Part shown: piece after piece, positions 2,951 to 58,729 of the stretch
Position numbering within the stretch: the stretch's first letter is position 1
Layout of the letters: every line of letters starts with the position of its first letter
Assembly: GCF_964355755.1 (NCBI RefSeq)
Contig: NC_092674.1
Coordinates: 28,644,001-28,708,000, forward strand
Source: Antedon mediterranea
Taxonomy: Eukaryota; Animalia; Echinodermata
Reading direction: 5' to 3'
Length of the DNA: 64,000 nt
The notes under the pieces: model-generated
The model's database searches: none
What the model was told of the DNA's origin: nothing
The model's input: only the letters and a program-made list of their open reading frames with translations
Translations under genes and position numbers: made by a program

Positions 2951-3249
2951 TTTGTGGAATATAAGTTCATGAAGTTTGAAGAGATTACTCTGTTTTGATT
3001 GGACAATCAAGGTGATATTCAAGAATGTTAACTAGAAGGGAGCTTTTGATTTGCGACGTATTGATCTGTCAGCGGTTGTCGTCTTGAAACCACGAAAACT
3101 GTATTGAGAAATAAAGTGTGGATACACATTTCAACTTTCCTGCAGGCACACAATGAACTAACCTGATACTAGGTCTTCAGTCCCTACATATGTCACTGGA
3201 GTCCCAGAACAACAGTGTACAATGTTTTCAGTGAAAGAAATACCCTAAA

Positions 3250-3411
3250 ATCTCTGTCTACACTATCAAACTAGTTTGACAAAAAAGTGTGATGTGCCCA
3301 AATATGGTAGTGATATGCTTAAATATGTTAGTGGAGTATGACATAATCATGTCCATATATGGGCACATCACATTTTTTTGTTACATCAAGTTTGATAGTG
3401 TAGACAGAGCT
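3250..3411. mobile_element. MITE family A (TIR AGCTCTGTCTACACTATCAAACT), PIF/Harbinger-like. Other copies or fragments near 17419, 18406-18689, 19863, 33077-33336, 37319-37458, 37585-37607, 38141-38261, 47857-48000, 48699-48822
   Basis: ~23-bp inverted ends (ctctgtctacactatcaaact / agtttgatagtgtagacagag). TTA flanks both sides of the copies at ~37319 and ~48699. Internal ggtagtgatatgcccaaatat units. About 10 copies in the window. Confidence 0.75.
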
Positions 3412-3900
3412 TAATTCAGAGTACAAGTGTCATCGTAAATCAACATGTATTTATTTTTATTATGTTTGGGTTTTTGTTTCTTAAAAGGTAAATTAATGAT
3501 TTTTTATGTCATTTTCATGTTATTTCATTTCAAATTACTTTCTTTAAATGTGTTTTTATTTTATTATGTCCTTTGTGCAATATTACTATTGTATAAAAAA
3601 TATATGTTCTATAAAATGTACATTATATATATATATATGAAAATAACAGAAACAAATACTGTAAAACATATTTGTATACATCTCTGTATAAAGTAAATGT
3701 CTAAAAATCCTTGTATTTTTCAAATTTAGTATTATTACTGATATATGTCCATATTGTGCCAATTTTGTTGTTTGTAGGAATAACATCTCATGGATTTTTA
3801 TTTTAGGAGGCATAATTACATAAAATTTATCTTCAACAAAATATTTACCATTTTGTTCTCCCATGTGTGACTTTTGAACTGTGCATGGTATGAAGGCTAA

Positions 3901-15704: not shown

Positions 15705-18700
15705 ATGTTGGTACCATATGTTGAAATTTACAAAGAAAATGTTGTAGAGGTACGAATATAAATCTATTTAGTACTGAAAAGTTCAGTTTTTTGTTAACAA
15801 ATAGTTGTTATGAAGCTAAAGGGAACTAGTTTAAGTTGCTGGTCAATTCGTCCCACCTGGACGGAACTGAAAAGCAGTCATACTATATACGCACGGTAGA
15901 CCCGGTGACGCCCGGTAGGCCCGGTCGGTATGCTTGTATGATATCAATATTTAACTTTTTATAATATATTTTTCCAGGAAATACAAGTTAAATATAAAAT
16001 CTAAAAATTATTGGAATATTGTTAAATGTTTCATCATACATTATCATCAACGCAACGTAACGTGTTAAAATGCCACAAAACATCACTTATCACAGAGGGC
16101 GGTCTTCAGTTTTCGTAATAAACCTGGTAATCCTTATTTTCACAGTTTTTCAAATAAAAAATGTCACAAATATCACAATAACATAAATAATTGTAGCATA
16201 CTTTACTTGAGTTGAGTATCATTAAATCCTACCGGCCCCAACTGGCGATACTATGGTTTATGGAAAATAACTGATACAAGAATAATTAACAAGTGGAACT
16301 CGTTGCCCGAATTGATTGTCAATAGCAAGAGTGTAAACTCATTCAAAAACAAACTTGACAAACACTCACACACATATGAGAGAAGAGGCTGAGGCTCCTT
16401 ACGAGTTTAAAAACTCAGTGCCTCTTAACTTTACTAAAGGTAAGAATTACTAAAGGTAAGAATGGTTTATGGAAAATAATTGTGGTTTTTATGAATTATT
16501 TCATTTTTTATTATTGTTAAAAATTCATTCTAATGTACAGTGCCATGATTATTTTAATTTTGCTACAATGAAATACTAATAACAAGTTTTATATATCAAT
16601 ATTCTAATCTAGAGATTAAAATTCAGCAAATCAGAATTTGTGAAGTTTGGTTTCTTACTGGGCAATTACAGGTATGTGGCTTGTGTGCTTTTTCAAAGAC
16701 ATAAAGTACTAACCCACTAGGCCTACTGACTGATATCTTCACAAACAAACACTCTTTGAAGTCAGACGTCCTGTGTACTACAGTGCAGATCACTAACATT
16801 CATTTGTGCACCAGATTTTAAAACATACAGTATTTCAATTCTTTTCCTTAGCAATTATGATGAAGTTTCTATAACAATAAGCTCTTGCAGCAGTGTATGT
16901 GATTCCAATGATGACGTGGTTTCAACACTAGATGCAACTTCACATGTTCTTTCTGGAGGTACTGCATTCATATTGTTTATACATCCAAAAAAAACTGAAT
17001 ATTTCAACAAAGTTATTTTTCTGTTAAGGCCAACTTACACAGACGAGCAGTAACTGTAAGCGGAAAACCGCGTAGCTTGTCGTAGAATCTGTATCTATCC
17101 TGAACAGAAACCACCCGTCCGGTCCGCGTTGTGTGCTAAATGGTCATAAGGAATAACATAATTTCACTATTACCGTTACCGCTCGTCTGTGTAAATTGGC
17201 GTTAATACATTTACTTTATAAAGTGAGTTTCAAAAGAAAATAAGTATTTGATTTCTTTCAATATTTAGATACAAGTATAGTAGGACTTTGGTTTAAAACA
17301 ACAGAAAACGTGGATACTCCTCTCATAGAGAAATTCTGTTTAGAAAAAGTTTCTGATAAATTGAAAGTAAGTTGTACTAATCATACAATATTATTATCAA
17401 TTTTTTTTTTCTATTTAAAGCTCTGTCTACCCTTTCAAACTTTATGTGACAAAAAAATGATGATGACGTCATATCCCTACCGTATTTGAGCATCATAAAT
17501 AAATAGGTTTTATTATAATAATAAAGTTAAAAGATCTCACTAGTTACCTAAATCATTATGGTAATTTTGTAATGAGTATTCATAAATTATCTTTATATTT
17601 TTAGCCATGGAGAAACTTTCTTGTCATATATGCCTTACCTAAAGATGAAGCCATCACCAGTATACATAGTGAGAATATTTTCATTTATAACAAAGTAGAA
17701 CATTCAGTAACACCAGCTTCTGTGAACATCCTACAAACGCCTGATTTTTTGCGGACGTTCCGAATCGCTGCTGATCTACCGGTGATGATGACCCTTAGCA
17801 AGGATACTGGTGAGTTTAGCCGCTGCATAAATTTGAATATTTGACTCCTGCGCAGAATTATATGCTTGAATGATCAGATACAACGAAGTAACCCTATTGT
17901 TAGCACACAAGAGTATCGTCCATTTATTGTTTTCTTTCTCAACTTTTAACACTGTTGATTTGCCTAAATTCAAATTTATTTTTTACATTTATATTGTCTT
18001 TTTTGCTTTTGGACATAAATAAATGTCTTTCAATTGAATAAAACAAAATAAATTCTTTATTCATTGTCTTTTTCAGATATAACACGTACGGCAGTGCAAC
18101 ACATCAAAGACTTAAAGCAACAAATTGATTCGGAGAGGACAGTGTTTCATATTAAGAACAGCAGTGTATTGCTAGGTATAGATAAACCAGTAATTGTTAA
18201 CAATACCAGGATTGATGATGCGACCTCTGCAAAGGAGATATTGAAATACATTGAAGATGATGAGGTGGATAGCTTTAGTGTTAAAAAAGCAAAGAAAACT
18301 AAGAAGAAAATCTCAGATGAAGAGGTATGAAATATATTTTTGGTTCTACTACTAGGAATTATTAATAAGGAAGAGGATAAGGAATCTCAATCTAAAAATG
18401 TCTTAAGCTCTGTCCACACTATCAAACTAGTTTTACAAAAAAAGTGTGAATAAGGTAGTGATATGCCCAAATATGGTAGTGATATGACATCATCATTTCC
18501 ATACAGTATACGGGACATATTTTTGTCACATAACGTTTGATAGTGTAGATAGAGCTTATCAAACTAGTTTGACAAAAAACTGTGATGTTCCAAAATATGA
18601 TAGTGATATACCCAAATATGGTAGTGATATGACATCATCATGTCCATCACATATTTTTGTCACATAAAGGTTGTTAGCTAGACAGAGCTTTAAAGTTCAA

Positions 18701-21700
18701 TTTATTATAATATTGAACCAATGTCGGTTTCTTGTTAGTTCCTTAAATTCCAACTTAATTCTTATGTTTACTTTGTAGGTTGTTGATGTTTCTTTACTGA
18801 CGCGAATAACACATCCAGCACATAGTATAGCTTCACCAGTGGCTTACTACAAATCTGGTAAATTTATTAAAGATGTATATGTAAAAAAACATGAAAAATG
18901 AAGATTAGTTTTCATAAAGTTATTCACTTCTGTAAAAAAACAATTATTTCACATATAAAAAGACAAAAAAAACGTTTAATTTTAACCAAAAAATCTTGTC
19001 ACGTTTGCTAAATATTTTGTTTTATACTATATGCCTCATTGAAGTATACACTTTCATCATTCACCTCATGCCATTATTTGTACCATTGCACTCATAAACA
19101 TTCATTTTTTGTATTTATTACTACATTTGATGAAACATTGTATTTTAATTATGTGTTTTATCTTTTAGGGTTAACACAACAAGTACAGTTCGCTCTACCA
19201 GTAAATGTTGTGGTTCAAGTAAACGAAAACAAAACTCCAGTTTCCAAACTTCCTAAACTTTTTATCAACGCTGTATGTAAACAATTAGCTGCCATGGCAA
19301 CATGTGTGCAAAAGTATTCAACAAATGAGATTTGCATTGTAAGGCCATTCCATTTTCAACCATGGGGGTGTAACCAGTTTGTAACAATTATATACCCAGA
19401 TGGGAAGACTGATAAAGATTTAGGTAGGTTATGTTTTCTTGTCAAAGTATTGACTTACCAAGTATTGATAATTTTCACAAACACACTTTCGATTTGCAAT
19501 GACTAACAGCCAAACTACATGTGCTCATGCAGAAATATTGAGACATGTTTTCTCACTCTCCACTTTGTAAAAAATAACATACATACAAAAGAAATAGAGC
19601 CAACAAATACTAAATTTCCCTTATATCTCTGTTTTTCTAGAATCTGAAAGAAGGACATTACATGAAATGCTGTTACTCCCTCTGGATAAACCGTTACTCA
19701 GAAGAAATAGTGCTTATCGCTTCCCAGCTGATAAAAAGAATATTGTGTACTTAGAAAATACACATATTGGTTTAAAAAATGACGGATGTGAGTTACTTGT
19801 TTATATTTCGTACAAATATAGCCAAAATGTAATATAATATTTTCTTGATCTTGGAAGTCTTAGGCTCTGTCTACACTATCAAACTTTATGTGAAAAAAAA
19901 AGAAGCTAAAATTAGGAATAAAGCAACTGTACATGTCCAATATTACCTCATTGATCTTTAGTAATAATAGTAATAGTAATTGAGTAATAAATGTACATTT
20001 TCTTGTACGTACATAAAAGAACTTTTGATGAGATATCGTAGTAATAAATGTATAAATAAATTTGATACTCATATTTCAATTTTTTCCAAAGCTGACGGCA
20101 GCAAAGTTTACCTCGTGCAGGGAACCTATTCCTATCACCATTACATGCAAGATAAATTTAACGATGATAAATGGGGTTGTGCTTATCGCTCGTTACAAAC
20201 CATTGTATCGTGGTTTCGACATCAAGGCTACACAGACGTGCCAGTACCGAGTCATAGGGTAATCCAACAGACCTTAGTCGATGTTGGGGATAAAGATGCT
20301 AAGTTTGTCGGTTCTAGAAATTGGATTGGATCGATAGAAGTGTGCACTGTTCTTGACCAACTGCTAGAGGTAAAGTCCGTTTTCCACTAGGCAAATTTAT
20401 TTGCGCAAATCGAAAGTGCGCATGCGTATTAATATTTTTCATCTACCTTTTGTGAAGTGGAAAAATGCACAACCAATCATAACTCAAGAATGTTTGATTT
20501 GCGCAAATATATTCGCTGATGAAAACAAGACTAAGGGTCTTGGCTCTTTTCATACTTGTAATAACTACTGAAATATTTATCATTAAAGAAGACAGTATAT
20601 TATATTAGTATGGAACGCCTCCTCTGCCTTCAGTTCACATTTATCATGCAGTACACACCAATCGTCATGCAGTACACACCAATCGTCATGCAGTACACAC
20701 CAATGGTCATGCAGTACACACCAATGGTCATGCAGTACACACCAATCGTCGTTCACATTTATCATGCAGTACACACCAATGGTTATGCAGTACACACCAA
20801 TCGTCATGCAGTACACACCAATGGTCATGCAGTACACACCAATCGTCATGCAGTACACACCAAACATCATGCAGTACACACCAATCGTCATGCAGTACAC
20901 ACCAAACATCATGCAGTACACACCAATGGTCATGCAGTACACACCAATTGTCATGCAGTACACACCAATCGTCATGCAGTACACACCAATCGTCATGCAG
21001 TGAAATATTGCGTAATTTATACCGCCACCTATCGACAAAATCGAATATCACGTGACGTTTATTAGACGGCTGTAAAACTAGGCCATCGACTCTAAGATTT
21101 CTTTTATGTTTGACATACTGTACTTATTTTAACCGCTACACATCTCTGTGAATGCTCTGTTTTTTATATATACAATAATTTATTATGCGAGACACAGGCG
21201 TATGGAACGCCTCCTCTGCCTTCAGTTCACATTTATCATGCAGTACACACCAATCGTCATGCAGTACACACCAATGGTCATGCAGTACACACCAATGGTC
21301 ATGCAGTACACACCAATGGTCATGCAGTACACACCAATCGTCGTTCACATTTATCATGCAGTACACACCAATGGTTATGCAGTACACACCAATCGTCATG
21401 CAGTACACACCAATGGTCATGCAGTACACACCAATCGTCATGCAGTACACACCAAACATCATGCAGTACACACCAATCGTCATGCAGTACACACCAATGG
21501 TCATGCAGTACACACCAATTGTCATCCAGTACACACCAATCGTCATGCAGTACACACCAATCGTCATGCAGTGAAATATTGCGTAATTTATACCGCCACC
21601 TATCGACAAAATCGAATATCACGTGACGTTTATTAGACGGCTGTAAAACTAGGCCATCGACTCTAAGATTTCTTTTATGTTTGACATACTGTACTTATTT

Positions 21701-24700
21701 TAACCGCTACACATCTCTGTGAATGCTCTGTTTTTTATATATACAATAATTTATTATGCGAGACACAGGCGCGGCTAGGAGGCCATTGCAATTATTGAAT
21801 TCCATAAAAGAAGTTTAAATAGTCTTAGTTTTACAGCCGTCTAATAAACCTCACGTGATATTCGATTTTGTCGATAGGTGGCGGTATAAATTACGCAATA
21901 TTTGACTGCATGACGATTGGTGTGTACTGCATGACGATTGGTGTGTACTGCATGACAATTGGTGTGTACTGCATAATGTTTGGTGTGTACTGCATGACGA
22001 TTGGTGTGTACTGCATGACGATTGGTGTGTACTGCATGATAAATGTGAACGACGATTGGTGTGTACTGCATGACAATTGGTGTGTACTGCATGACCATTG
22101 GTGTGTACTGCATGACGATTGGTGTGTACTACATGACGATTGGTGTGTACTGCATGATGTTTGGTGTGTACTGCATGACGATTGGTGTGTACTGCATGAC
22201 GATTGGTGTGTACTGCATGACCATTGGTGTGTACTGCATGACGATTGGTGTGTACTGCATGATAAATGTGAACTGAAGGCAGAGGAGGCGTTCCATACAG
22301 GCGCGGCTAGGAGGCCATTGCAATTATTGAATTCCATAAAAGAAGTTTAAATAGTCTTAGTTTTATGGAACGCCTCCTCTGCCTTCAGTTCACAATGGTC
22401 ATGCAGTACACACCAATGGTCATGCAGTACACACCAATGGTCATGCAGTACACACCAATGGTCATGCAGTACATACCAATGGTCATGCAGTACACACCAA
22501 TCGTCGTTCACATTTATCATGCAGTACACACCAATGGTCATGCAGTACACACCAATGGTCATGCAGTACACACCAATCGTCATGCAGTACACACCAAACA
22601 TCATGCAGTACACACCAATCGTCATGCAGTACACACAAAACATCATGCAGTACACACCAATGGTCATGCAGTACACACCAATTGTCATGCAGTACACACC
22701 AATCGTCATGCAGTACACACCAATCGTCATGCAGTGAAATATTGCGTAATTTATACCGCCACCTATCGACAAAATCGAATATCACGTGACGTTTATTAGA
22801 CGGCTGTAAAACTAGGCCATCGACTCTAAGATTTCTTTTATGTTTGACATACTGTACTTATTTTAACCGCTACACATCTCTGTGAATGCTCTGTTTTTTA
22901 TATGTACAATAATTTACTATGCGAGACACAGGCGCGGCTAGGAGGCCATTGCAATTATTGAATTCCATAAAAGAAGTTTAAATAGTCTTAGTTTTACAGC
23001 CGTCTAATAAACCTCACGTGATATTCGATTTTGTCGATAGGTGGCGGTATAAATTACGCAAGATTTGACTGCATGACGATTGGTGTGTACTGCATGACAA
23101 TTGGTGTGTACTGCATAATGTTTGGTGTGTACTGCATGACGATTGGTGTGTACTGCATGACGATTGGTGTGTACTGCATGATAAATGTGAACGACGATTG
23201 GTGTGTACTGCATGACAATTGGTGTGTACTGCATGACCATTGGTGTGTACTGCATGACGATTGGTGTGTACTGCATGACGATTGGTGTGTACTGCATGAT
23301 GTTTGGTGTGTACTGCATGACGATTGGTGTGTACTGCATGACGATTGGTGTGTACTGCATGACCATTGGTGTGTACTGCATGACGATTGGTGTGTACTGC
23401 ATGACGATTGGTGTGTACTGCATGATAAATGTGAACTGAAGGCAGAGGAGGCGTTCCATATAGTTTTACAGCCGTCTAATAAACCTCACGTGATATTCGA
23501 TTTTGTCGATAGGTGGCGGTATAAATTACGCAATATTTGACTGCATGACGATTGGTGTGTACTGCATGACGATTGGTGTGTACTGCATGACAATTGGTGT
23601 GTACTGCATAATGTTTGGTGTGTACTGCATGACGATTGGTGTGTACTGCATGACGATTGGTGTGTACTGCATGATAAATGTGAACGACGATTGGTGTGTA
23701 CTGCATGACAATTGGTGTGTACTGCATGACCATTGGTGTGTACTGCATGACGATAGGTGTGTACTGCATGACGATTGGTGTGTACTGCATGATGTTTGGT
23801 GTGTACTGCATGACGATTGGTGTGTACTGCATGACGATTGGTGTGTACTGCATGACCATTGGTGTGTACTGCATGACCATTGGTATGTACTGCATGACGA
23901 TTGGTGTGTACTGCATGATAAATGTGAACTGAAGGCAGAGGAGGCGTATGGAACGCCTCCTCTGCCTTCAGTTCACATTTATCATGCAGTACATATGGAA
24001 CGCCTCCTCTGCCTTCAGTTCACATTTATCATGCAGTACACACCAATCGTCATGCAGTACACACCAATCGTCATGCAGTACACACCAATGGTCATGCAGT
24101 ACACACCAATCGTCATGCAGTACACACCAATCGTCATGCAGTACACACCAAACATCATGCAGTACACACCAATCGTCATGCAGTACACACCAATCGTCAT
24201 GCAGTACACACCAATCGTCGTTCACATTTATCATGCAGTACACACCAATCATCATGCAGTACACACCAATCGTCATGCAGTACACACCAAACATCATGCA
24301 GTACACACCAATTGTCATGCAGTACACACCAATCGTCATGCAGTACACACCAATCGTCATGCAGTCAAATATTGCGTAATTTATACCGCCACCTATCGAC
24401 AAAATCGAATATCACGTGAGGTTTATTAGACGGCTGTAAAACTAAGACTATTTAAACTTCTTTTATGGAATTCAATAATTGCAATGGCCTCCTAGCCGCG
24501 CCTGTGTCTCGCATAATAAATTATTGTATATATAAAAAAACAGAGCATTCACAGAGATGTGTAGCGGTTAAAATAAGTACAGTATGTCAAACATAAAAGA
24601 AATCTTAGAGGCGATGGCCTAGTTTTACAGCCGTCTAATAAACGTCACGTGATTTTCGATTTTGTCGATAGGTGGCGGTATAAATTACGCAAAATTTCAC

Positions 24701-27700
24701 TGCATGACGATTGGTGTGTACTGCATGACGATTGGTGTGTACTGCATGACAATTGGTGTGTACTGCATGACCATTGGCGTGTACTGCATGATGTTTGGTG
24801 TGTACTGCATGACGATTGGTGTGTACTGCATGATGTTTGGTGTGTACTGCATGACGATTGGTGTGTACTGCATGACGATTGGTGTGTACTGCATGACGAT
24901 TGGTGTGTACTGCATGACCATTGGTGTGTACTGCATGATAAATGTGAACGACGATTGGTGTGTACTGCATGACCATTGGTGTGTACTGCATGACCATTGG
25001 TGTGTACTGCATGACCATTGGTGTGTACTGCATGACGATTGGTGTGTACTGCATGACCATTGTGAACTGAAGGCAGAGGAGGCGTTCCATAAGTACACAC
25101 CAATCGTAATGCAGTACACACCAATCGTCATGCAGTACACACCAATCGTCATGCAGTACACACCAATCGTCATGCAGTACACACCAAACATCATGCAGTA
25201 CACACCAATCGTCATGCAGTACACACCAATCGTCATGCAGTACACACCAATGGTCATGCAGTACACACCAATTGTCATGCAGTACACACCAATCGTCGTT
25301 CACATTTATCATGCAGTACACACCAATCGTCATGCAGTACACACCAATCGTCATGCAGTACACACCAATCGTCATGCAGTACACACCAAACATCATGCAG
25401 TACACACCAATTGTCATGCAGTACACACCAATCGTCATGCAGTACACACCAATCGTCATGCAGTCAAATATTGCGTAATTTATACCGCCACCTATCGACA
25501 AAATCGAATATCACGTGAGTTTTATTAGACGGCTGTAAAACTATATGGAACGCCTCCTCTGCCTTCAGTTCACATTTATCATGCAGTACACACCAATCGT
25601 CATGCAGTACACACCAATGGTCATGCAGTACACACCAATGGTCATGCAGTACACACCAATGGTCATGCAGTACACACCAATCGTCGTTCACATTTATCAT
25701 GCAGTACACACCAATGGTTATGCAGTACACACCAATCGTCATGCAGTACACACCAATGGTCATGCAGTACACACCAATCGTCATGCAGTACACACCAAAC
25801 ATCATGCAGTACACACCAATCGTCATGCAGTACACACCAAACATCATGCAGTACACACCAATGGTCATGCAGTACACACCAATTGTCATGCAGTACACAC
25901 CAATCGTCATGCAGTACACACCAATCGTCATGCAGTGAAATATTGCGTAATTTATACCGCCACCTATCGACAAAATCGAATATCACGTGACGTTTATTAG
26001 ACGGCTGTAAAACTAGGCCATCGACTCTAAGATTTCTTTTATGTTTGACATACTGTACTTATTTTAACCGCTACACATCTCTGTGAATGCTCTGTTTTTT
26101 ATATATACAATAATTTATTATGCGAGACACAGGCGCGGCTAGGAGGCCATTGCAATTATTGAATTCCATAAAAGAAGTTTAAATAGTCTTAGTTTTACAG
26201 CCGTCTAATAAACCTCACGTGATATTCGATTTTGTCGATAGGTGGCGGTATAAATTACGCAATATTTGACTGCATGACGATTGGTGTGTACTGCATGACG
26301 ATTGGTGTGTACTGCATGACAATTGGTGTGTACTGCATAATGTTTGGTGTGTACTGCATGACGATTGGTGTGTACTGCATGACGATTGGTGTGTACTGCA
26401 TGATAAATGTGAACGACGATTGGTGTGTACTGCATGACAATTGGTGTGTACTGCATGACCATTGGTGTGTACTGCATGACGATTGGTGTGTACTACATGA
26501 CGATTGGTGTGTACTGCATGATGTTTGGTGTGTACTGCATGACGATTGGTGTGTACTGCATGACGATTGGTGTGTACTGCATGACCATTGGTGTGTACTG
26601 CATGACGATTGGTGTGTACTGCATGACGATTGGTGTGTACTGCATGATAAATGTGAACTGAAGGCAGAGGAGGCGTTCCATAAAACTAAGACTATTTAAA
26701 CTTCTTTTATGGAATTCAATAATTGCAATGGCCTCCTAGCCGCGTATGGAACGCCTCCTCTGCCTTCAGTTCACAATGGTCATGCAGTACACACCAGTCG
26801 TCATGCAGTACACACCAATGGTCATGCAGTACACACCAATGGTCATGCAGTACACACCAATGGTCATGCAGTACACACCAATCGTCGTTCACATTTATCA
26901 TGCAGTACACACCAATGGTCATGCAGTACACACCAATTGTCATGCAGTACACACCAATGGTCATGCAGTACACATCAATCGTCATGCAGTACACACCAAA
27001 CATCATGCAGTACACACCAATCGTCATGCAGTACACACCAAACATCATGCAGTACACACCAATGGTCATGCAGTACACACCAATTGTCATGCAGTACACA
27101 CCAATCGTCATGCAGTGAAATATTGCGTAATTTATACCGCCACCTATCGACAAAATCGAATATCACGTGACGTTTATTAGACGGCTGTAAAACTAGGCCA
27201 TCGACTCTAAGATTTCTTTTATGTTTGACATACTGTACTTATTTTAACCGCTACACATCTCTGTGAATGCTCTGTTTTTTATATATACAATAATTTATTA
27301 TGCGAGACACAGGCGTATGGAACGCCTCCTCTGCCTTCAGTTCACAATGGTCATGCAGTACACACCAATCGTCATGCAGTACACACCAATCGTCATGCAG
27401 TACACACCAATGGTCATGCAGTACACACCAATGGTCATGCAGTACACACCAATCGTCGTTCACATTTATCATGCAGTACACACCAATGGTCATGCAGTAC
27501 ACACCAATCGTCATGCAGTACACACCAATGGTCATGCAGTACACACCAATCGTCATGCAGTACACACCAAACCTCATGCAGTACACACCAATCGTCATGC
27601 AGTACACACCAAACATCATGCAGTACACACCAATGGTCATGCAGTACACACCAATTGTCATGCAGTACACACCAATCGTCATGCAGTACACACCAATCGT

Positions 27701-30700
27701 CATGCAGTACACACCAATCGTCATGCAGTGAAATTTTGCGTAATTTATACCGCCACCTATCGACAAAATCGAAAATCACGTGACGTTTATTAGACGGCTG
27801 TAAAACTAGGCCATCGACTCTAAGATTTCTTTTATGTTTGACATACTGTACTTATTTTAACCGCTACACATCTCTGTGAATGCTCTGTTTTTTTATATAT
27901 ACAATCATTTATTATGCGAGACACAGGCGCGGCTAGGAGGCCATTGCAATTATTGAATTCCATAAAAGAAGTTTAAATAGTCTTAGTTTTACAGCCGTCT
28001 AATAAACCTCACGTGATATTCGATTTTGTCGATAGGTGGCGGTATAAATTACGCAATATTTGACTGCATGACGATTGGTGTGTACTGCATGACAATTGGT
28101 GTGTACTGCATGATGTTTGGTGTGTACTGCATGACGATTGGTGTGTACTGCATGACGATTGGTGTGTACTGCATGATAAATGTGAACGACGATTGGTGTG
28201 TACTGCATGACAATTGGTGTGTACTGCATGACCATTGGTGTGTACTGCATGACGATTGGTGTGTACTGCATGACGATTGGTGTGTACTGCATGACGATTG
28301 GTGTGTACTGCATGATGTTTGGTGTGTACTGCATGACGATTGGTGTGTACTGCATGACGATTGGTGTGTACTGCATGACCATTGGTGTGTACTGCATGAC
28401 GATTGGTGTGTACTGCATGACGATTGGTGTGTACTGCATGATAAATGTGAACTGAAGGCAGAGGAGGCGTTCCATACAGGCGCGGCTAGTATGGAACGCC
28501 TCCTCTGCCTTCAGTTCACATTTATCATGCAGTACACACCAATCGTCATGCAGTACACACCAATCGTCATGCAGTACACACCAATGGTCATGCAGTACAC
28601 ACCAATCGTCATGCAGTACACACCAATCGTCATGCAGTACACACCAAACATCATGCAGTACACACCAATCGTCATGTAGTACACACCAATCGTCATGCAG
28701 TACACACCAATGGTCATGCAGTACACACCAATTGTCATGCAGTACACACCAATCGTCGTTCACATTTATCATGCAGTACACACCAATCGTCATGCAGTAC
28801 ACACCAATCGTCATGCAGTACACACCAAACATTATGCAGTACACACCAATTGTCATGCAGTACACACCAATCGTCATGCAGTACACACCAATCGTCATGC
28901 AGTCAAATATTGCGTAATTTATACCGCCACCTATCGACAAAATCGAATATCACGTGAGGTTTATTAGACGGCTGTAAAACTAAGACTATTTAAACTTCTT
29001 TTATGGAATTCAATAATTGCAATGGCCTCCTAGCCGCGCCTGTGTCTCGCATAATAAATTATTGTATATATAAAAAACAGAGCATTCACAGAGATGTGTA
29101 GCGGTTAAAATAAGTACAGTATGTCAAACATAAAAGAAATCTTAGAGTCGATGGCCTAGTTTTACAGCCGTCTAATAAACGTCACGTGATATTCGATTTT
29201 GTCGATAGGTGGCGGTATAAATTACGCAATATTTCACTGCATGACGATTGGTGTGTACTGCATGACGATTGGTGTGTACTGCATGACAATTGGTGTGTAC
29301 TGCATGACCATTGGTGTGTACTGCATGATGTTTGGTGTGTACTGCATGACGATTGGTGTGTACTGCATGATGTTTGGTGTGTACTGCATGACGATTGGTG
29401 TGTACTGCATGACCATTGGTGTGTACTGCATGACGATTGGTGTGTACTGCATAACCATTGGTGTGTACTGCATGATAAATGTGAACGACGATTGGTGTGT
29501 ACTGCATGACCATTGGTGTGTACTGCATGACCATTGGTGTGTACTGCATGACCATTGGTGTGTACTGCATGACGATTGGTGTGTACTGCATGATAAATGT
29601 GAACTGAAGGCAGAGGAGGCATATGGAACGCCTCCTCTGCCTTCAGTTCACATTTATCATGCAGTACACACCAATGGTCATGCAGTACACACCAATGGTC
29701 ATGCAGTACACACCAATCGTCATGCAGTACACACCAATCGTCATGCAGTACACACCAAACATCATGCAGTACACACCAATCGTCATGCAGTACACACCAA
29801 TGGTCATGCAGTACACATCAATCGTCATGCAGTACACACCAATGGTCATGCAGTACACACCAATTGTCATGCAGTACACACCAATCGTCGTTCACATTTA
29901 TCATGCAGTACACACCAATCGTCATGCAGTACACACCAATCGTCATGCAGTACACACCAAACATCATGCAGTACACACCAATCGTCATGCAGTACACACC
30001 AATCGTCATGCAGTCAAATATTGCGTAATTTATACCGCCACCTATCGACAAAATCGAATATCACGTGAGGTTTATTAGACGGCTGTAAAACTAAGACTAT
30101 TTAAACTTCTTTTATGGAATTCAATAATTGCAATGGCCTCCTAGCCGCGCCCGTGTCTCGCATAATAAATTATTGTATATATAAAAAACAGAGCATTCAC
30201 AGAGATGTGTAGCGGTTAAAATAAGTACAGTATGTCAAACATAAAAGAAATCTTAGAGTCGATGGCCTAGTTTTACAGCCGTCTAATAAACGTCACGTGA
30301 TATTCGATTTTGTCGATAGGTGGCGGTATAAATTACGCAATATTTCACTGCATGACGATTGGTGTGTACTGCATGACGATTGGTGTGTACTGCATGACAA
30401 TTGGTGTGTACTGCATGACCATTGGTGTGTACTGCATGATGTTTGGTGTGTACTGCATGACGATTGGTGTGTACTGCATGATGTTTGGTGTGTACTGCAT
30501 GACGATTGGTGTGTACTGCATGACCATTGGTGTGTACTGCATGACGATTGGTGTGTACTGCATGACCATTGGTGTGTACTGCATGATAAATGTGAACGAC
30601 GATTGGTGTGTACTGCATGACCATTGGTGTGTACTGCATGACCATTGGTGTGTACTGCATGACCATTGGTGTGTACTGCATGACGATTGGTGTGTACTGC

Positions 30701-33700
30701 ATGACCATTGTGAACTGAAGGCAGAGGAGGCGTTCCATAGGCTAGGAGGCCATTGCAATTATTGAATTCCATAAAAGAAGTTTAAATAGTCTTAGTTTTA
30801 CAGCCGTCTAATAAACCTCACGTGATATTCGATTTTGTCGATAGGTGGCGGTATAAATTACGCAATATTTGACTGCATGACGATTGGTGTGTACTGCATG
30901 ACGATTGGTGTGTACTGCATGACAATTGGTGTGTACTGCATGATGTTTGGTGTGTACTGCATGACGATTGGTGTGTACTGCATGACGATTGGTGTGTACT
31001 GCATGATAAATGTGAACGACGATTGGTGTGTACTGCATGACAATTGGTGTGTACTGCATGACCATTGGTGTGTACTGCATGACGATTGGTGTGTACTGCA
31101 TGACGATTGGTGTGTACTGCATGACGATTGGTGTGTACTGCATGATGTTTGGTGTGTACTGCATGACGATTGGTGTGTACTGCATGACGATTGGTGTGTA
31201 CTGCATGACCATTGGTGTGTACTGCATGACGATTGGTGTGTACTGCATGACGATTGGTGTGTACTGCATGATAAATGTGAACTGAAGGCAGAGGAGGCGT
31301 TCCATACTCCTCTGCCTTCAGTTCACATTTATCATGCAGTACACACCAATCGTCATGCAGTACACACCAATCGTCATGCAGTACACACCAATGGTCATGC
31401 AGTACACACCAATCATCATGCAGTACACACCAATCGTCATGCAGTACACACCAAACATCATGCAGTACACACCAATCGTCATGCAGTACACACCAATCGT
31501 CATGCAGTACACACCAATCGTCATGCAGTACACACCAATGGTCATGCAGTACACACCAATTGTCATGCAGTACACACCAATCGTCGTTCACATTTATCAT
31601 GCAGTACACACCAATCGTCATGCAGTACACACCAATTGTCATGCAGTACACACCAATCGTCATGCAGTACACACCAATCGTCATGCAGTACACACCAATC
31701 GTCATGCAGTCAAATATTGCGTAATTTATACCGCCACCTATCGACAAAATCGAATATCACGTGAGGTTTATTAGACGGCTGTAAAACTAAGACTATTTAA
31801 ACTTCTTTTATGGAATTCAATAATTGCAATGGCCTCCTAGCCGCGCCTGTGTCTCGCATAATAAATTATTGTATATATAAAAAACAGAGCATTCACAGAG
31901 ATGTGTAGCGGTTAAAATAAGTACAGTATGTCAAACATAAAAGAAATCTTAGAGTCGATGGCCTAGTTTTACAGCCGTCTAATAAAGGTCACGTGATATT
32001 CGATTTTGTCGATAGGTGGCGGTATAAATTAGGCAATATTTCACTGCATGACGATTGGTGCGTACTGCATGACAATTGATGTGTACTGCATGATGTTTGG
32101 TGTGTACTGCATGACGATTGGTGTGTACTGCATGATGTTTGGTGTGTACTGCATGACGATTGATGTGTACTGCATGACCATTGGTGTGTACTGCATGACG
32201 ATTGGTGTGTACTGCATGACCATTGGTGTGTACTGCATGATAAATGTGAACGACGATTGGTGTGTACTGCATGACCATTGGTGTGTACTGCATGACCATT
32301 GGTGTGTACTGCATGACCATTGGTGTGTACTGCATGACCATTGGTGTGTACTGCATGACGACTGGTGTGTACTGCATGACCATTGTGAACTGAAGGCAGA
32401 GGAGGCGTTCCATAGATGGCCTAGTTTTACAGCCGTCTAATAAACGTCACGTGATATTCGATTTTGTCGATAGGTGGCGGTATAAATTATGCAATATTTC
32501 ACTGCATGACGATTGGTGTGTACTGCATGACGATTGGTGTGTACTGCATGACAATTGGTGTGTACTGCATGACCATTGGTGTGTACTGCATGATGTTTGG
32601 TGTGTACTGCATGACGATTGGTGTGTACTGCATGATGTTTGGTGTGTACTGCATGACGATTGGTGTGTACTGCATGACCATTGGTGTGTACTGCATGATA
32701 AATGTGAACGACGATTGGTGTGTACTGCATGACCATTGGTGTGTACTGCATGACCATTGGTGTGTACTGCATGACCATTGGTGTGTACTGCATGACGATT
32801 GGTGTGTACTGCATGACCATTGTGAACTGAAGGCAGAGGAGGCGTTCCATAGAGGCGTTCCATATATTAGTTCATTTAAAATTTGTGTTCAAGTTTTTAT
32901 TTAGTAGAAACCTTATTTATGTATGTTGTATACAAATTGTCTTAAATTAATGTGTTTGTTATTTGTAGGTTACCTCAAAAATAATGTTTGTAAATACTGG
33001 CTCTGAAATGGCTAACAAAGGCAGAGAATTAGCCCACCATTTTGAAACACAGGGAACACCAATCATGATAGGTAAGCACTGTCTACACTATCCAACTTTA
33101 TGTGACAAAAAAATGTGATATGATGTGCTCATATATGGACATGATGATGTCATCACTACCATACTTGTTTTGTAGGGGCCCTCATGAGACAAGCTTATGC
33201 TTCTAGTGCGGGCCCCAGTTGTTGTTGTCATAATAATAACTGAATAAATGTATATGAACTATACTTTAGTATATCACTACCATTTCGGCATGTCACACCC
33301 TTTTTGTCAAACTAGTTTGATAGTGTAGACAGAGCTGTAGTGTCCCCTACCCAAGAATTAGAAGTGTTCTCAACATGTACTTAGCATAAATTATGATTAC
33401 GTCAGAGTAGGGAAAACATCTGACCAATTTATCCTCTCTTACCCACAGGTGGAGGTGTGTTAGCTCACACTATTCTGGGTGTTGACTTCAATGATAAATC
33501 TGGTGCTTTAAAGTTCCTTATTCTAGATCCACATTATACAGGCTCAGAAGACATTAAAATCATACAGGATAAGGTGTGTTAGCATTTTTATTTTTGTTTA
33601 TCACTGGTTGAGTGGCTAAGCTCTTTTGATGTCTTCTCTACTGATATTAAACAAATCGCCTCTCTTTTTCTACCACATCAATATAAACCTCTGGTCTTGG

Positions 33701-36167: not shown

Positions 36168-39100
36168 TCAACTATCCTCCCAGCTGTTTTCTACAACACG
36201 TATGACTTTTTTCTCGTACTCTCGTCGGTTTTCTTGATACAACTGAGCAGCTAGACTATTGGCTGGACTGTTTGGATTCGGTTCATCGAGCAATGACTAA
36301 AAAAAACCAACAAAAAACACAAAATTGGTTAATGGGACACATTCTGGTCAACAAGTGTTTAAATCAGCACAGTTGACCTCAAAAAGAAGGCAATAGACGC
36401 ATACTGTAGGTCTACCATGACGATAGCCACCACACTAACTATTGACTAATTTACTGTACATGCATGGTCAACTGTTCGTATAGAAAACTGTATAGCATGC
36501 ACAGTCGACCATGATTATAGCCACCTAATTATATGATGACTATTGGCACAGTCAACCGTGCTGAAAAGTCGACTGTGCCTATAGCCTCATTCATTTAAAA
36601 TAACACTCACTTGTATTGATGTAAGTATAGCTGAAACATCATATGTTGGGCTCCATCTATTCTGCAAAATATCTAAGCATATTCCACCATCTGCATAAAC
36701 TGAAATATAAAAATAAATTGTTTTCATTAATTTTAAATTCCAATTCATGCATGTACAAAAAATAAAGTAACATTGTAAAAACTGAGTTGAAATGGAACAA
36801 AAAACCCCATAAACAAGCAAAAAATCTTTTACAAAAATAGTGGTACCCTTAAAAAGAAAACATTAAGACTGTTATAATTTTTTTTAAAATTATTATAACT
36901 AAAATGACCAATTGCGGAAATCTTATCAATCATCTCCCATGTCTTAAAAATACATCTGTGTAGTAATTGTAAATTTCAGACGCAATAACAGATGACAAAT
37001 CATAGTTTAAAAATGGAATATCTTCGCTTAAACAGCATTAAAAACAACTTTTCTACTTTCGTTTGAATTTAATAAGAGAACAATTCTTATACAAGATTTA
37101 TAGAAAGAAAGAAGCAAAAGTAAAACTGTTATTTTGATTGATTATCATATTAAATTAATCTTAACAATTACGAATGAAACACTGATTGAAAACACAATAA
37201 TGGTAGTCAGCTGAACCAATAATCTGTGACAAAATTATTGGTTTCAAATGCAATATAGTACTTCCTTTTATTTTTATAGAACTATCTATTTTAGTGTACT
37301 GTATGTGACAATGTATTAAGCTCTGTCTACACTATCAACCTTGATGTGACAACAATATTGGATGTGCTCATTTATGGACATGATGAAGTCATATCACTAC
37401 CATATTTGAGCACATCACACTATTTTGTCACACAAAGTTTTATAGTGTAGACAGAGCTTTATGTCCTTAATTCTCTCCTCCCCCTCCCCCTCTTTTTTTT
37501 TTATACGAGTCACCTCTTTCTCCCAACTTAATTTTATGGCAAGGGAGCTTCTTTAATTTCATTCATAAAAGTTTAGATTATACTAGTTTGATAGTGTAGA
37601 CAGAGCTTTATAACAAAGAATATAGAGTGTATTAATGGAACCCAAAGTTATCATTACAATAGGGAAGGCCATGATATAGTCACAGAATAATAACTGCACT
37701 GTTAAAAAGCAGACAAGTAGTCTTTGTAATCAACAAGATAATAGAAATCATGAATCTGAGCTCCTGTAAATTCAAGTAGTATAGAAAGGTTGTCTACTTT
37801 CAACAATAGTGACTTTACATTTGTCCAGAAATCACAGTTTTATAGTACTGACATTTTTCAGGTTTTTTTACACAACATTAACACATTGTATATCATGGAG
37901 CTAGCTAGCTCCATGGTATACACTAACAGTAAGACATTTCAATTCCAATTAAAATTGTGTTGTTTCACATAGTATTTAAGAATAATACACACAGTATGTT
38001 GGGAGTAGAATTATTTTAAAATAGTGGGGTATGCACTGTGTGGAAGTAGGTAGGCAAGGCTCAGTGTGAATTGCCTGTTGAAGTCCCTATCATATGCTAC
38101 AATCAAGAATCAATAATGTATATTCGCCTATATTGCTATAAGCTCTGTCTACACTATCAAACTTTATGTGACAACAAAAATTTGATGTGCCCATATATGG
38201 ACTATATTTGGGCATATCGCTACCATTTTTGTCAATTTAGCTTGATAGTGTGGACAAAGCTTCAGAGTTCCCCAGCTTGATAAGTCTAATAAAAATGCAG
38301 GTACAAATACAGTACACATAGTGGTGGTGGAACAAAAGGTCTTTGGATTGGGTGTCAACCTTTTTAAGGTGGGTGGAAAAAGGTGTATAAAGAAGGTTTT
38401 GGGATGGGTGCCAGGTGAAAATTTGGGTGGAAGTATACATAAATATTGCACTGATGAAGGGCTAGTGTTGCCCAAAAGCTCTGCTAACTTTTCTGGCTGT
38501 TTTACTTTATCCAGGGCTCGCAGAATCGCTTGCCCGACGTCCCGCGGCAACCAAATAAATACGTCGGGCAACTAAAATTTAACATGTCATGTCCCGACGG
38601 GCAACCTCTTAAAATCACCGAAAATGTCCACGATGTTTTACAGGGGTTGTGAAAAACTGTAACAATGAAAATAATAGTTGCGCACAAACGAATTCTCTTG
38701 ACGTCGAGACCAGTGTAGTGTTTGTTAAGTAAATGTATGGATCGGAATTCGGTGGTATGGAACGTTATCTCCAGGAGCCAAAACACGTGTTTCTATGCAG
38801 TCGGGCGTATCAAGTCGTTGCGTATAGAGTTTCCAGGTCTGTCATATAGCACGCGGTCTCTTGCGGCATCCATTGATCGCGAAATAGGAAGCCTTGAACT
38901 CTCGGCTCTTATTTGAAGTTATTATACCAGGGAGTTTCTAATTAACAACTCCCTAGTTATACTATAAACCAAATAAAATAGGGGCTAGTATGTTTTTGGT
39001 TTTTGTTTTTCTCAATTATCGACATCATTTTACGGTGGTAATAAAATCTGAATCTACTACTAAGTATTAATTATGTGGCCTACAGCCTGATAGTAGATTA

Positions 39101-46700: not shown

Positions 46701-48555
46701 ATTCATTCATTTTTTCTTTGACTATTTTTCCTTCCAAAACTTTTTTTGTGTCTCATTTTGGTTTGTTTATTTTTAATAATATGCATGAAATTGTATTTAA
46801 TAATTTTATTATGAAATTATATGGATAATATATATTTTGGTGTAAGTCGGCTTTTTTTGTGTCCAAGAACCTGGCCATAATCCAGCCCATCTCCTTTCTG
46901 TAGACTCTGTATCGGCTTTCAACTGTGGCGTATCTGCCACGAACATCGCCGGTCATCCTGGTGATTCCATGGTTACCGAACCGACATTAGATAATAATTA
47001 CGAAGCCATGGAGATGGAACCTGTAGTACCTAAACCAAGACCTAAACCAGCACGGTGGAGGTGCCAGGCTTTTGTTATATGAATATTCAACTATAAGCAA
47101 ATAAATATTCATATCCTGATCAACATTTAAATGAAGCTTGTGAATATTCATAATACTGTAATCATCTTTTGAAATTGTGTCTGCAAAATGCGGTGTGATG
47201 TGCTTTTAAAGATAATTGTGTGAAACGTAAAAGGTCTTTTCGATACTAAGGTCTTATTTCCAATGTACACTAGGGGATTCAAGCAATTAGTGACTACTTT
47301 GCAGCAGTATATCAAAGGCTAAAGGTCAAATGTTAAGTTAAGTTGTTGAATAATGTATAGCAAAGTTTCCTGGAAGCAGTAACCACACATTTCTAAAGCT
47401 CTTTAATAATGTAATTAATTAAGTTGATTTAATATTACTCTTAAAACCATGTAATTATTGGAGTAATTCATTGTAGATAATCTCAATGCTGGCCTGAGTG
47501 TTGAGGGCGCTGCACACTCTGAGGAAGAGGAACTAATGGATGATGACTCACTCATGACTAAGGTTAATGTGAATGCGATGAACCATGTCCATTCACGTCC
47601 GATAACAATCCAATGTAGGACTCTGAAAGGACACTACATTTGATAAAGTAGGAAATCTAGAAAATTGATTGATTAATTAAGATTATCCATAAATGATTTA
47701 GTAACTTGTCTAATACAGTAGCTACAGAGAGTCATCAAAGTTATCTTCCTATTATTAAAAATATGTCTAAATTTTCATTTTAATTCACCGCAAGGTATAA
47801 GTCTTTTATGATAGGACAATGTTTAAGTAGAGTTCCGTGTGCGATGCTTACTGTTAATCTCTGTCTACACTACCAAACTTTATGTGACAAAAAAATGTGG
47901 TGTGCTCATATATGGAGATGATGATGTCATAGGCATATCACTACCATATTTGGGCACATCACACTTTTTGTCAAACTAGTTTTATAGTGTAGATTGAGCT
48001 TTTTGTCTAAAAATAGAGCTTTACATTTTGTTATGTGTAATATTTAGCATTAACTGTGGTATCAAAAATCTGCTGAGTAGTGTACGGTATTAATTTTTTG
48101 TATGTGTTTAAGAATAGCAATAATGCGTTTTATATTTATTTATATACCTGTATTGTACAATCTTGCCCTTATTTTGCTTGTTCCTTTTTATGCATGTAGA
48201 TGTCCCTACTCCCCTGCAGTTCACACCAAACCATGCTACCCAACCAGCACAACCAAATCTGGCCAATGGTAGTATACCTCACACTAACACTAACGGAATA
48301 CATGCGTCTTTAGATGTTAACTGCAACTCGGAAACCAATGACATGCAAGTGGATGCTGCTGAACCAATGGTAGAGAATGAAAGTCATTTTATGAACGGTG
48401 TTGATGCGGTATCGTCATCGTCGTCCCCCGAGAAACGGTCCAGCCCAATGTCAAGCATGCTAGAACATCAAAGGTCGGTGGAGCAGGCCGCGGGTTATGA
48501 CAGTATTATGTATGAAGCGCTGTACGGTGGCACTCCATTCTGTCATGCGTATTGA
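43769..48555 (+). CDS. ANKRD10: Ankyrin repeat domain protein 10 (exons 43769-43978, 44363-44515, 45284-45375, 45879-46153, 48200-48555)
   Basis: [66 protein letters not shown] and RKR..KKART match ANKRD10 as I recall it. Confidence 0.9.
44540..44688. mobile_element. Short MITE with an 18-bp TIR
   Basis: aggcttatcgcaaatagc / gctatttgcgataaccct. Confidence 0.55.
45491..45648. mobile_element. Short hAT-like MITE (CAGTGG ends)
   Basis: cagtgggcgtattca / tgaatacgccactg; no clear TSD. Confidence 0.45.
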
Positions 48556-49288
48556 GATTGTATTACATTAATACAAAAAAGATAAACATTTTGGCATACA
48601 TGGGGTGTCATAACTGTAGTTGAGCTGGAATTGAGTTACAGACAAAAATCAAAATGCCTGCTGTAAAGAAATAATAAGACTGTAGCAAGTTAACCTTAAG
48701 CTCTGTCTACAGTGTCAAACTTTATGTGATGTGCCCATATATGATGATGTCATATCACTACCCTATTTGGGCATATCACTACCCTATTTGGGAACATCAC
48801 ACTTCCTTTGTTTGATAGAGCTTTAGACCTATATACGATCGATTACATTTGATATTTTCTAGACAGTCAAAAAGCAATATTGGCCAGCATTACATTTTGT
48901 AAAATGTTTATATTTAAACGTCTTATGTATATGGTAGATGATTTTGTAAAAAAAATAATATTCATGAATGTATCTATTTTATTTTCCTATTGCATGGTCA
49001 ACAAGGAATGATAAACATTCTTTACATACTTAAGTCCCGTTTAATGCTATAGTGTGTGAATGCCTTGGTGTCCAGCCAGGATTTGAAACCTGGACGTGGA
49101 AAACAAAAAGTCATAACAAGCAAGGATCATGTGTGTGATATTTTAACAATCTTAATTACTATTACTGTATTCATTTAGTGATGATATTAGTATAAGTACT
49201 GGAATCTTATTATGGATTCCTCCATTCATACAAAGGGTGCCATTCTGCTTTAAATTTTATCAACAGTATATGTAGTAACTCGAAGTAA

Positions 49289-56481: not shown

Positions 56482-58729
56482 CTACTATGTCTTTACAACG
56501 CTACTCATGCCAGTGAGAGGGAAGGGTGATGATATGGGTGGTTTAACTGCAATAATAAAGATTTGTACATACTATACGGCGACTGAAACCATTATCCGTC
56601 TAAAAAAATTTATATACAACCTCCGCAGCACAGATTGAAAAAAAAATGGATCGAATTTCTGTTATGAGTATAGAGTATTTTCCTTTACGACGCCTGAGGG
56701 AATAGACACTTGTGGAACGACACAGAGATTGGAATGTTCCATTCATCGCAAATCAATACATTTGTATAAACGTATATTAAATCTATCAAAATAGTATTTT
56801 TTTAAGAAAATCGGCCTGTCTTCAACATTATGATACTGTACTCGAGCTGTTCAACGGGTTTTCAGCTATTAAAAACAATTATCGTAGGAGGAGATAGGAA
56901 AATGCGAAGCCTCCTCGCATTTTTGTGGCGGGTATTTTTCAAGATGGAAATCCATTAGACAGTGTATACCACGATCGGAAAACACCCCTATTTGGGGCAA
57001 ATCGTTGAACCTAAATTTGTTTTAATCGTCAATAACTAATTATCTAACATAATTTAATTAGTAAACAGGGTTACATCAGGTGGTTAAAATCAGTACCGAA
57101 AGTACGAACCAACTTTATATACCATCGAGTAAAAATTCTAAAAGTAAGGTGCGATTTACCGAATTTTGCCCTTACGTAAATTTATATATAGATGAACGTT
57201 GTGATAGCTCCTCCTTCGACCCAAAGTATGGCCGTTTTTCCCCTGGTACTGATTCTGTAACTTTAGTTTACTTTGTTTTGCGCGTGCATCCTTCTACACA
57301 GTATTACAAAATACCACAGTAGTAGCAGACATAGGCTTACATGCTTGTTTACTTATTAATGAAAACTGTATTTCTAAAATTGTAATTTTTTAGTACACGT
57401 AGATTTGTTTCGTTTTTACCACACATTTACTAAAATGTGATATTAGTTTTTGTTTTATGAAGGAGGATGGAAGGGAGATAGCATAGCATAGCATAGCGTA
57501 TTATATTTTTTCTGCTTCGCTTGGTACTCTAGAACTTTTATTCAAAATATAGGTCTCTGTCAATTGTTAAGCAGATATTTTTCATTATGGCATTGTACTA
57601 TTCACAATACAATAAAAAGAGTATTGAAGGTTGAGGAATAATGGTCCAATTGTTGTCAATGTAGGAGGCATTTACAGTGTCATAGATCACTTCTTTGTTT
57701 ATTGATAATACTTATTAATAATGTACGTGTTATGGTATTTATGTATTGATTGAATTTGTTCATGCGTATATGACCGTCATTATTATGACTGGGTTTCCTA
57801 GGCCCAACGGAATACTACGAAATACAAGCCATTTAAAAGACAAACCATACTAGAGGAGCACCAAAAGCAGGAAATATGCATTTTTAGCTTACGATTCCAA
57901 AGTTTTGGTATTTGGTAAGTCATTGGCCTAAATTGTATATATAGCACGTATGGATGTTATGTATTCAAAATTTAGAGGAAACAAAATCTTTTTTAGGGAA
58001 GGAGATAGCCTATGTATAACTTGATCCGCACTAGTCGAGTAAAACGTTTTGGGCGTCTCGTCACCATTTTGATGCTGAAGAGTAAGAGTTATCGAAAGTA
58101 TTATTTTAGTAGTATTTACTTTTCTGCTTGTTTTTGTATTTTTATGAATGGTTTTTTGATATTTCTTGTGTGGATATTTTCTGATATATTTATTGATTGA
58201 AATGCTATATTTTATCCTTATGTGCTACTTGGTAAGAGGATTCACAGACTCTTGTCAGGGATGTAGTCACCTTTTGTGTTTCCTGCCACTTACTTTGTAG
58301 TTGTTTGTTGTTGTTGTTAATTGGCAAATAAGAATAAGTATTGCAATTAGAGGGTGGTGCGATGCCAACTGAATGTTAACCATGTAGTTTTCAATCAATG
58401 TAAACAGTTAGTTCTGGAACTTCTGGCCGGCTAGAGATAGCAAAGTACTTGGCGATTCATGCACACGATTCATTTGTGGTCATCATCGATAATTAAACGA
58501 TAAGAGGCTAGAATAGACTAATAAAGCCCACATGTTGCTATTATTACATAATGTCGATTATGTCTACCACCATCATAGATGGTGCAAAAAATGACACTTT
58601 GCATTATCAATTGAAAACCTCTTTGGAAGACGACCTATTCGTGGAGTGTAGGCATACATTATGTTAAGCCATTAAAATCTATTATAGGCTTTTTAAAATT
58701 ATTTACAGAAAGCCAGATTCAGATACATA

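Follow-up and report, generated by a model that had tools for sequence, protein, structure and literature searches.

Insertion of transposons into copies of their own kind, or side by side with them, has been reported in several systems. The rice miniature inverted-repeat transposable elements (MITEs) Castaway and Gaijin self-insert at high frequency and form nested multimers through independent events (review PMC5172404, on Jiang and Wessler 2001), and self-inserting Helitrons give rise to composite elements (PMC5148889). Members of the bacterial IS3 and IS30 families (IS911, IS30) can target their own terminal inverted repeats (TIRs) (PMC7986276, PMC7780238), with junction spacers of 6-8 bp in ISCth4 (PMC7780238). 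For the P element and hobo, a double insertion seeds tandem dimers that are later expanded by unequal exchange (PMC5932611), and in Hydractinia an IS3EU-like repeat with internal repeats is clustered at putative centromeres (PMC11934779). Here we describe a nest of 11 foldback elements, probably of IS3EU type, within one intron of the UFSP2 gene of the echinoderm Antedon mediterranea. The window analysed is a stretch of 64,000 nucleotides (NCBI RefSeq assembly GCF_964355755.1, contig NC_092674.1, positions 28,644,001 to 28,708,000 of the forward strand), and all coordinates below refer to it.

The nest element resembles each of these systems in part. Like Castaway and Gaijin it is non-autonomous, bounded by TIRs and self-inserting; the rice elements differ in host and in their short TIRs, and the review passages on them mention neither an 11-copy, five-deep nest nor exact re-use of sites (PMC5172404). 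Self-insertion is shared with Helitrons, which are, however, rolling-circle elements (PMC5148889). Bacterial IS3 and IS30 elements belong to a related transposase clan and can likewise take their own ends as target (PMC7986276, PMC7780238). Satellite-like arrays arising from repeated transposition at preferred sites are common to the nest and to the P and hobo dimers, but the latter are head-to-tail tandems at one genomic target, whereas the targets described here lie inside the element (PMC5932611). The Hydractinia repeat is similar in being IS3EU-like, in its internal repeats and in its clustering, and the passages that describe it do not mention the term "nested" or a parse by target-site duplications (TSDs) (PMC11934779). 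Our literature search, with Repbase Reports, supplements and most subscription papers outside its scope, found no five-deep, fixed-site self-nest of a cut-and-paste element and no deep self-nesting of IS3EU. Within that scope, what appears new here is the depth, the twice-used sites, the avoidance of arrays and the readable lineages; self-insertion itself is known from rice MITEs and Helitrons.

The segment 20609-32864 consists of 11 copies (C1 to C11) of a ~1.1-kb foldback element, nested five deep, with zero bases unassigned:

20603-20608, + strand: left copy of the TSD TATTAG (right copy at 32865-32870)
20609-32864, + strand: C1, the outermost copy; own bases 20609-21200, 22304-22363, 23467-23946 and 32858-32864 (1139 bp)
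21201-22297, + strand: C2, in the core of C1; TSD CAGGCG
22364-23460, + strand: C3, at the inner border of the right arm of C1; TSD TAGTTT
23947-32851, - strand: C4, in the right tip of C1; TSD GAGGCG; hosts C5, C6, C7 and C11; core minus 111 bp
23994-25091, - strand: C5, in the first array unit of C4; TSD AGTACA; the sole event in an array
25544-26682, + strand: C6, the intact reference copy; TSD AAACTA; the site of C3 in opposite relative orientation
26745-31306, + strand: C7, in the core of C4 at GCCGCG; no TSD; right end adjoins the clipped tip of C11; hosts C8 and C9+C10
27316-28476, + strand: C8, in the core of C7; TSD CAGGCG, the site of C2
28490-29621, - strand: C9, in the core of C7; TSD GGCTAG around C9+C10; tip clipped
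29622-30739, - strand: C10, in the tip of C9 at GAGGC(A), which mirrors the C4 site
31307-32414, - strand: C11, in the core of C4 beside GATGGC; window-left tip shortened by its first 10 bp

The nesting order is C1>[C2,C3,C4>[C5,C6,C7>[C8,C9>C10],C11]], with six copies in + orientation (C1, C2, C3, C6, C7, C8) and five in - orientation (C4, C5, C9, C10, C11). An 11-base tip sequence occurs as 10 left and 10 right ends, all in 20609-32864, and these pair strictly last-in-first-out with no orphan. Exact matches to the 30-bp tip number 19 and are confined to 20609-32851 (0 in 100 shuffles). Removal of each child with one TSD copy yields 11 elements of 986-1161 bp, and the lengths balance (12214 + 7x6 = 12256 bp, the full span of the nest). 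Automatic pairing recovered the exact 6-bp TSDs TATTAG (C1), CAGGCG (C2, C8), TAGTTT (C3), GAGGCG (C4), AGTACA (C5) and AAACTA (C6), and an eighth, GGCTAG, brackets the unit C9+C10 in the listed flanks. The remaining 51.7 kb of the window held no further copy (best blastn match 28 bp). An earlier sequence-only reading had proposed this complete 11-copy parse with its nesting and both orientations, the eight exact duplications and the absence of copies from the other ~52 kb, all of which the base accounting, the recovered hexamers and the blastn search bear out.

The same reading held that removing each copy restores its host, which is true except at two junctions. Neither C7 nor C11 has a TSD: the right end of C7 adjoins C11, C11 lacks its first 10 bp, and removal does not restore their host C4, which has lost 111 bp of core. 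It is possible that C7 landed in the tip of C11 instead, so that the nest could be six deep and C7 either a sibling or a child of C11. C10 likewise has no TSD of its own, since its left flank reads GAGGCA (G>A vs GAGGCG), the last 7 bp of C9 are gone and C10 ends on the TSD of C9; the 13-bp tandem produced by insertion at GAGGCG is still present for C4 at 32839-32864. The C7/C11 junction would be best explained by an adjacent deletion that the transposase made at one end of C7, and that of C9/C10 by collapse of the 13-bp tandem duplication plus one G>A change, or by a composite that moved as one unit. That the array arose by repeated transposition rather than by unequal crossover, as had been suggested, is supported by the exact TSDs, the two orientations and the distinct copies at re-used sites. 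A satellite grown by unequal crossover was rejected, as it would be head-to-tail, in one orientation and free of TSDs.

Each copy consists of a 174-bp core between arms of 430-514 bp. Within an arm, a 30-bp tip is joined by 21-bp repeats in two blocks and, on the inner side, by ~90 bp of unique sequence. The arms of the reference copy C6 (472 and 493 bp, around a core of 174 bp) match in 452/493 columns. The number of 21-bp units per arm differs between copies, likely by slippage or unequal exchange. As single-stranded DNA, a single copy folds end to end at -572 kcal/mol, a value with no shuffle control at that length. Foldback elements such as Drosophila FB and sea-urchin TU have long TIRs with an outer domain of tandem repeats and an inner unique domain, a short, exchangeable middle, and TSDs of 8-10 bp (8 bp for TU). 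The nest element shows the same long TIRs, tandem-repeat outer domain, inner unique domain and short middle, an architecture rather than a superfamily, and exchangeable cores also occur in two of the sequencing runs considered below (X5 and X6). It differs from FB and TU in its termini and in its TSD, which is 6 bp in 8/8 cases. We also observed the same rare C>T unit variant in opposite arms of two copies, the right arm of C1 (23467-23946) and the left arm of C3 (22364-22814), which hints that inverted neighbours have undergone conversion; C3 appears to be a mosaic of the two tip types.

With regard to superfamily, the termini of Polintons and long terminal repeat (LTR) elements are AG..CT or TG..CA, and identity with either was rejected given that such ends and direct LTRs are required, whereas the nest element has TA..TA inverted ends and no LTRs. 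Polintons and LTR elements are integrase elements as well, with a TSD of 6 bp or of 3-6 bp (PMC10045372). IS3EU, whose structure and function have been termed largely unexplored (PMC11934779), includes complete families with TA..TA termini and usually a 6-bp TSD (PMC10045372), rust-fungus families that end in TAYGG..CCRTA (PMC12730594), and, in GingerRoot, a preference for GC-rich targets together with TIRs of 100-150 bp (PMC6839031). Non-autonomous IS3EU/GingerRoot members likewise combine TA..TA ends (TAYGG..CCRTA), a 6-bp TSD, TIRs >30 bp and GC-rich targets (PMC10045372, PMC12730594, PMC6839031). In the nest, TATGG..CCATA is found on all 20 intact tips (2/22 are clipped), eight TSDs are exactly 6 bp (C7, C10 and C11 are without their own), the arms of 430-514 bp exceed 30 bp, and 7/11 internal events lie in windows of at least 12/20 GC, a trait reported for GingerRoot that is not diagnostic. 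The arms, made of 21-bp repeats, are longer than GingerRoot TIRs, and the IS3EU/GingerRoot passages do not describe self-nesting, unlike what is seen here (PMC10045372, PMC12730594, PMC6839031).

Judged from its ends, to which no transposase is linked, the nest element is probably a non-autonomous member of IS3EU, and the signature invoked by the sequence-only reading (TAY..RTA ends with a 6-bp TSD) agrees with published accounts of that superfamily (PMC10045372, PMC12730594). Its statement that no transposase is encoded here also held, in that no transposase family was matched by Pfam among 62 open reading frames (ORFs) of the window, 4 of them from the nest. These 4 long frames had no Pfam match above the cut-off and were taken as repeat by-products rather than genes, and an Rfam match on one copy, a single weak hairpin at 23.7 bits against a threshold of 195 bits, was rejected. 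A scan for the tip returned no relative in metagenome contigs beyond a chance match, and 0 in viral contigs; the sole metagenome match (contig L001) diverges after its first ~22 bases.

To describe where the insertions land, 11 internal events (the ten inner copies plus the second end of C7) were mapped onto the element. A 13-bp GC patch within the core took four of them, the tip and the arm/core borders three each, and an array the remaining one. Bacterial IS3 and IS30 elements insert beside an end, a few bases away for IS911; in contrast, the three tip events here sit 7-10 bp inside the tip and the other 8 far from the tips. The 21-bp arrays make up 65% of the element but received only 1/11 events (C5; P for at most 1/11 = 2e-4). 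Three sites were each used twice by different copies: CAGGCG by C2 and C8, which are 9 substitutions apart in hosts that are 6 apart; TAGTTT by C3 and C6, which are 7 substitutions apart and opposite in orientation relative to their hosts; and the tip site GAGGCG by C4 and C10, which are 5 substitutions apart. Because the copies (and the C2/C8 hosts) differ by substitutions, and C3 and C6 by orientation, the paired hits were independent, and the idea that C7>C8 arose as a duplicate of an existing C1>C2 pair was rejected, since hosts and children both differ. The simulated chance of such coincidences is 9e-4 for the unfolded element and 4e-4 with the arms folded; this test and that of array avoidance were chosen post hoc, after the data had been seen.

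The windows of at least 12/20 GC that received 7/11 events are the GC-richest 3% of the element (37/1120), in agreement with the GC-rich preference of GingerRoot (PMC6839031). The founder site of C1, TATTAG, is AT-rich (2/20 GC). Outside the nest, 2007/51700 windows are equally GC-rich and received no copy, which led us to reject GC preference alone as what keeps copies in the nest. A strict target motif was also rejected, as none is common across 9 sites.

C1 must have been the first insertion. Two derived array mutations of C1 recur in C2, C6 and C9, one of the two is present in C3, and C4, C5, C7, C8, C10 and C11 carry neither. C1 has only 2 private substitutions, compared with 5 in C3 and 5 in C11; private substitutions are present in 9/11 copies, and inner copies differ from C1 by up to 11 substitutions. 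Had all copies come from C1 in place, both marks would need to have reverted, or an already interrupted C1 to have been copied. To judge by the six inner copies that carry neither mark, donors likely came from outside the nest. The simplest reading is one of five or six donor lineages, most of them from outside, with sister pairs as local re-jumps or repeatedly active donors. The genome is a few hundred Mb in size, in which a target of at most 12 kb would gather such lineages by chance almost never. Under uniform local hops, the probability that all 10 fall in the nest is 0.12 for a range of 0.5 kb, 0.02 for 1 kb and 1e-5 for 5 kb; purely local uniform hops would require a range of ~1 kb or less.

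Public sequencing data were listed as 13 runs from 5 studies, with no RNA run among them, and four runs (X1, X2, X5, X6) were examined at one core and its left inner arm (window positions 25938-26200); the small shares (X9-X13) do not enter the results. The run contigs show an abundance of the family in two organisms; an intact core of identical sequence is present in X5, which is a second sample. In X2, one contig passes at GGCTAG from the core into tip sequence, and at exactly this point the main core contigs end, overlapping by 30 bases. The 31-mer implied by this junction is not in the window, and the C9 junction found there has just 14 bp in common with the intact core; the site used by C9 was therefore hit in a different copy or a different allele as well.

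Several side observations concern the wider family in these runs. A loose end before 25940 in X1 and X2 reads TATGG and then CTCTG straight into the inner arm, with AT-rich non-self DNA upstream, apparently an array-less relative in ordinary DNA. In X1, X2, X5 and X6 the inner arm has several times the summed depth of the core; different cores follow the inner arm after 26015 in X5 and X6, and X1 and X2 have long, unrelated continuations that branch off the core at 26101 and 26131. The wider family shares the arms of the nest element, and a longer, possibly autonomous member is conceivable there.

We regard the nest as a stack of 11 non-autonomous IS3EU-type foldbacks grown by self-insertion, and an attraction to resident copies at this locus seems likely, because the copies fall in several lineages and cannot all descend from C1. 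The transposase would presumably be supplied in trans, and the donors would be several different copies elsewhere in the genome, along with some local re-jumps. The transposase may bind the ~30-35 short arm repeats of each copy, so that the complex with an incoming copy could dock on a resident one and integrate at nearby GC-rich spots outside the protein-covered arrays, namely the tips, the arm/core borders and the one GC patch of the core. Each arrival would add binding sites, and the nest would snowball. The claim of the sequence-only reading that the family homes into its own copies is likely at this locus, given the several lineages; genome-wide it is no more than a possibility, and the public contigs have mostly unbroken cores and one self-junction. 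We would only tentatively extend it to a transposase that homes on resident copies throughout the genome via subterminal repeats, inserts at fixed bases and builds Russian-doll arrays by positive feedback. Genome-wide homing as the inverse of target immunity, and as a recombination-free route from transposon to satellite that is possibly general to IS3EU, is an idea of comparably speculative standing.

A number of points weigh against such an attraction and need to be considered. The evidence is one locus that was selected for its striking look, and the rate test of the lineage argument is marginal (P 0.02-0.05). Near-identical sisters exist (C2/C6/C9, 1-2 substitutions apart; C5/C8; C7/C11) and suit local re-jumps, and gene conversion among neighbouring repeats could blur the lineages. 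The core contigs of X2 are unbroken at four other hot spots (GCCATC, CAGGCG, CGCGGC, TAGTTT), the self-junction has a depth of ~36 against ~1900-2000 for the core (by subtraction; ~1/55), where contig depth is not equal to copy number and rare variants drop out of contigs, and 1 self-junction was found among 19 of 24 loose ends. Because cores are mostly unbroken, the self-junction is shallow and only one was seen among the loose ends, most copies may be solo, and the X2 junction could be another allele of the present nest. Taken together, the run contigs neither prove nor rule out frequent nesting.

Some of these points suit a one-off burst of short-range hopping, in which sister-chromatid copies re-inserted within ~1 kb at GC-rich spots with no pull on distant donors. 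The sister copies, the local intramolecular activity implied by an adjacent deletion at C7/C11 and the mostly unbroken cores of X2 and X5 would all be consistent with it, and for hops of at most 500 bp the chance of remaining in the nest is 0.12-0.6. However, six inner copies lack the two derived marks of a founder that has itself few private changes, the flanking 51.7 kb hold no copies, and the additional junction at the same hot-spot base lies in a context not found in the window. We consider such a burst rather unlikely. Less probable still is a structural attraction, whereby inverted-repeat hairpins or stalled replication expose open or broken DNA that draws any active element. The end-to-end fold of one copy (-572 kcal/mol) and three events at the stem/loop border (C3, C6, C11) speak in its favour, but all 12256 bp belong to one family although other repeat families are abundant in the window, and the nest family is absent from an older foldback at 53827-56481, whose arms are 81% alike. 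That the nest is partly or wholly an artefact of assembling a repeat-rich stretch is scarcely credible: the C2/C8 junction type is not visible in X1 or X2 contigs, but mis-joins would not produce eight perfect 6-bp duplications, each placed precisely at a tip and nested last-in-first-out, 9/11 copies have private substitutions, and a tip-into-core junction of like kind occurs in an independent contig set.

The nest lies in a conserved gene, UFSP2, whose upstream exon has 99% identity to an Antedon mediterranea protein and 94% to one of Anneissia japonica, as fits an Antedon-like feather star:

20092-20369, + strand: UFSP2 exon upstream of the nest; peptidase C78 domain
20370-32968, + strand: UFSP2 intron (GT..AG) carrying the nest; 337 bp after removal of C1 and one TSD copy
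32969-33071, + strand: UFSP2 exon downstream of the nest

The 337-bp intron has been expanded ~37-fold, and the nest brings 15 AATAAA hexamers onto its sense strand (20609-32864, + strand). A safe-haven strategy, raised by the sequence-only reading, would be a speculative interpretation of this nest.

Other repeats and frames were noted in the window. The older foldback at 53827-56481 is a second IS3EU-type element with ends TACGG..CCGTA, flanks CTACAA/CTACTA (5/6 match), arms of ~310 bp at 81% identity, 20-bp repeats and a 68-bp palindrome at 54137-54204; the ORFs scanned in its middle gave no Pfam match, and it does not contain a nested copy of its own kind. An unrelated ~150-bp palindromic MITE-like family occurs as dispersed, diverged solo copies, several of them in UFSP2 introns:

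3247-3414, 17418-17493, 18405-18690, 19861-19901, 33073-33336: copies of the ~150-bp MITE-like family
37312-37465, 38139-38266, 47854-48003, 48696-48804: further copies of the same family

An uninterrupted 809-aa frame at 58697-61126 (+) has RING-like and filamin matches and is TRIM-like, and three diverged direct repeats (249-476, 907-1133, 2203-2382; 79-87% identity) lie in coding-like sequence.

Nests of a single family are usually ascribed to chance or to local hopping, and repeat annotators would label a locus such as this one a satellite, losing the transposition record. At this locus one can read in which order the events took place, which base was targeted and to which lineage each donor belonged, and together these point to outside donors drawn to a resident copy. 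If this were not to hold genome-wide, the nest would still document hot-spot choice and local jumping with unusual clarity. If it were true genome-wide, it would provide a testable targeting rule for IS3EU and a direct route by which a DNA transposon turns into a satellite-like block, which may bear on the IS3EU-like repeat at the putative centromeres of Hydractinia.

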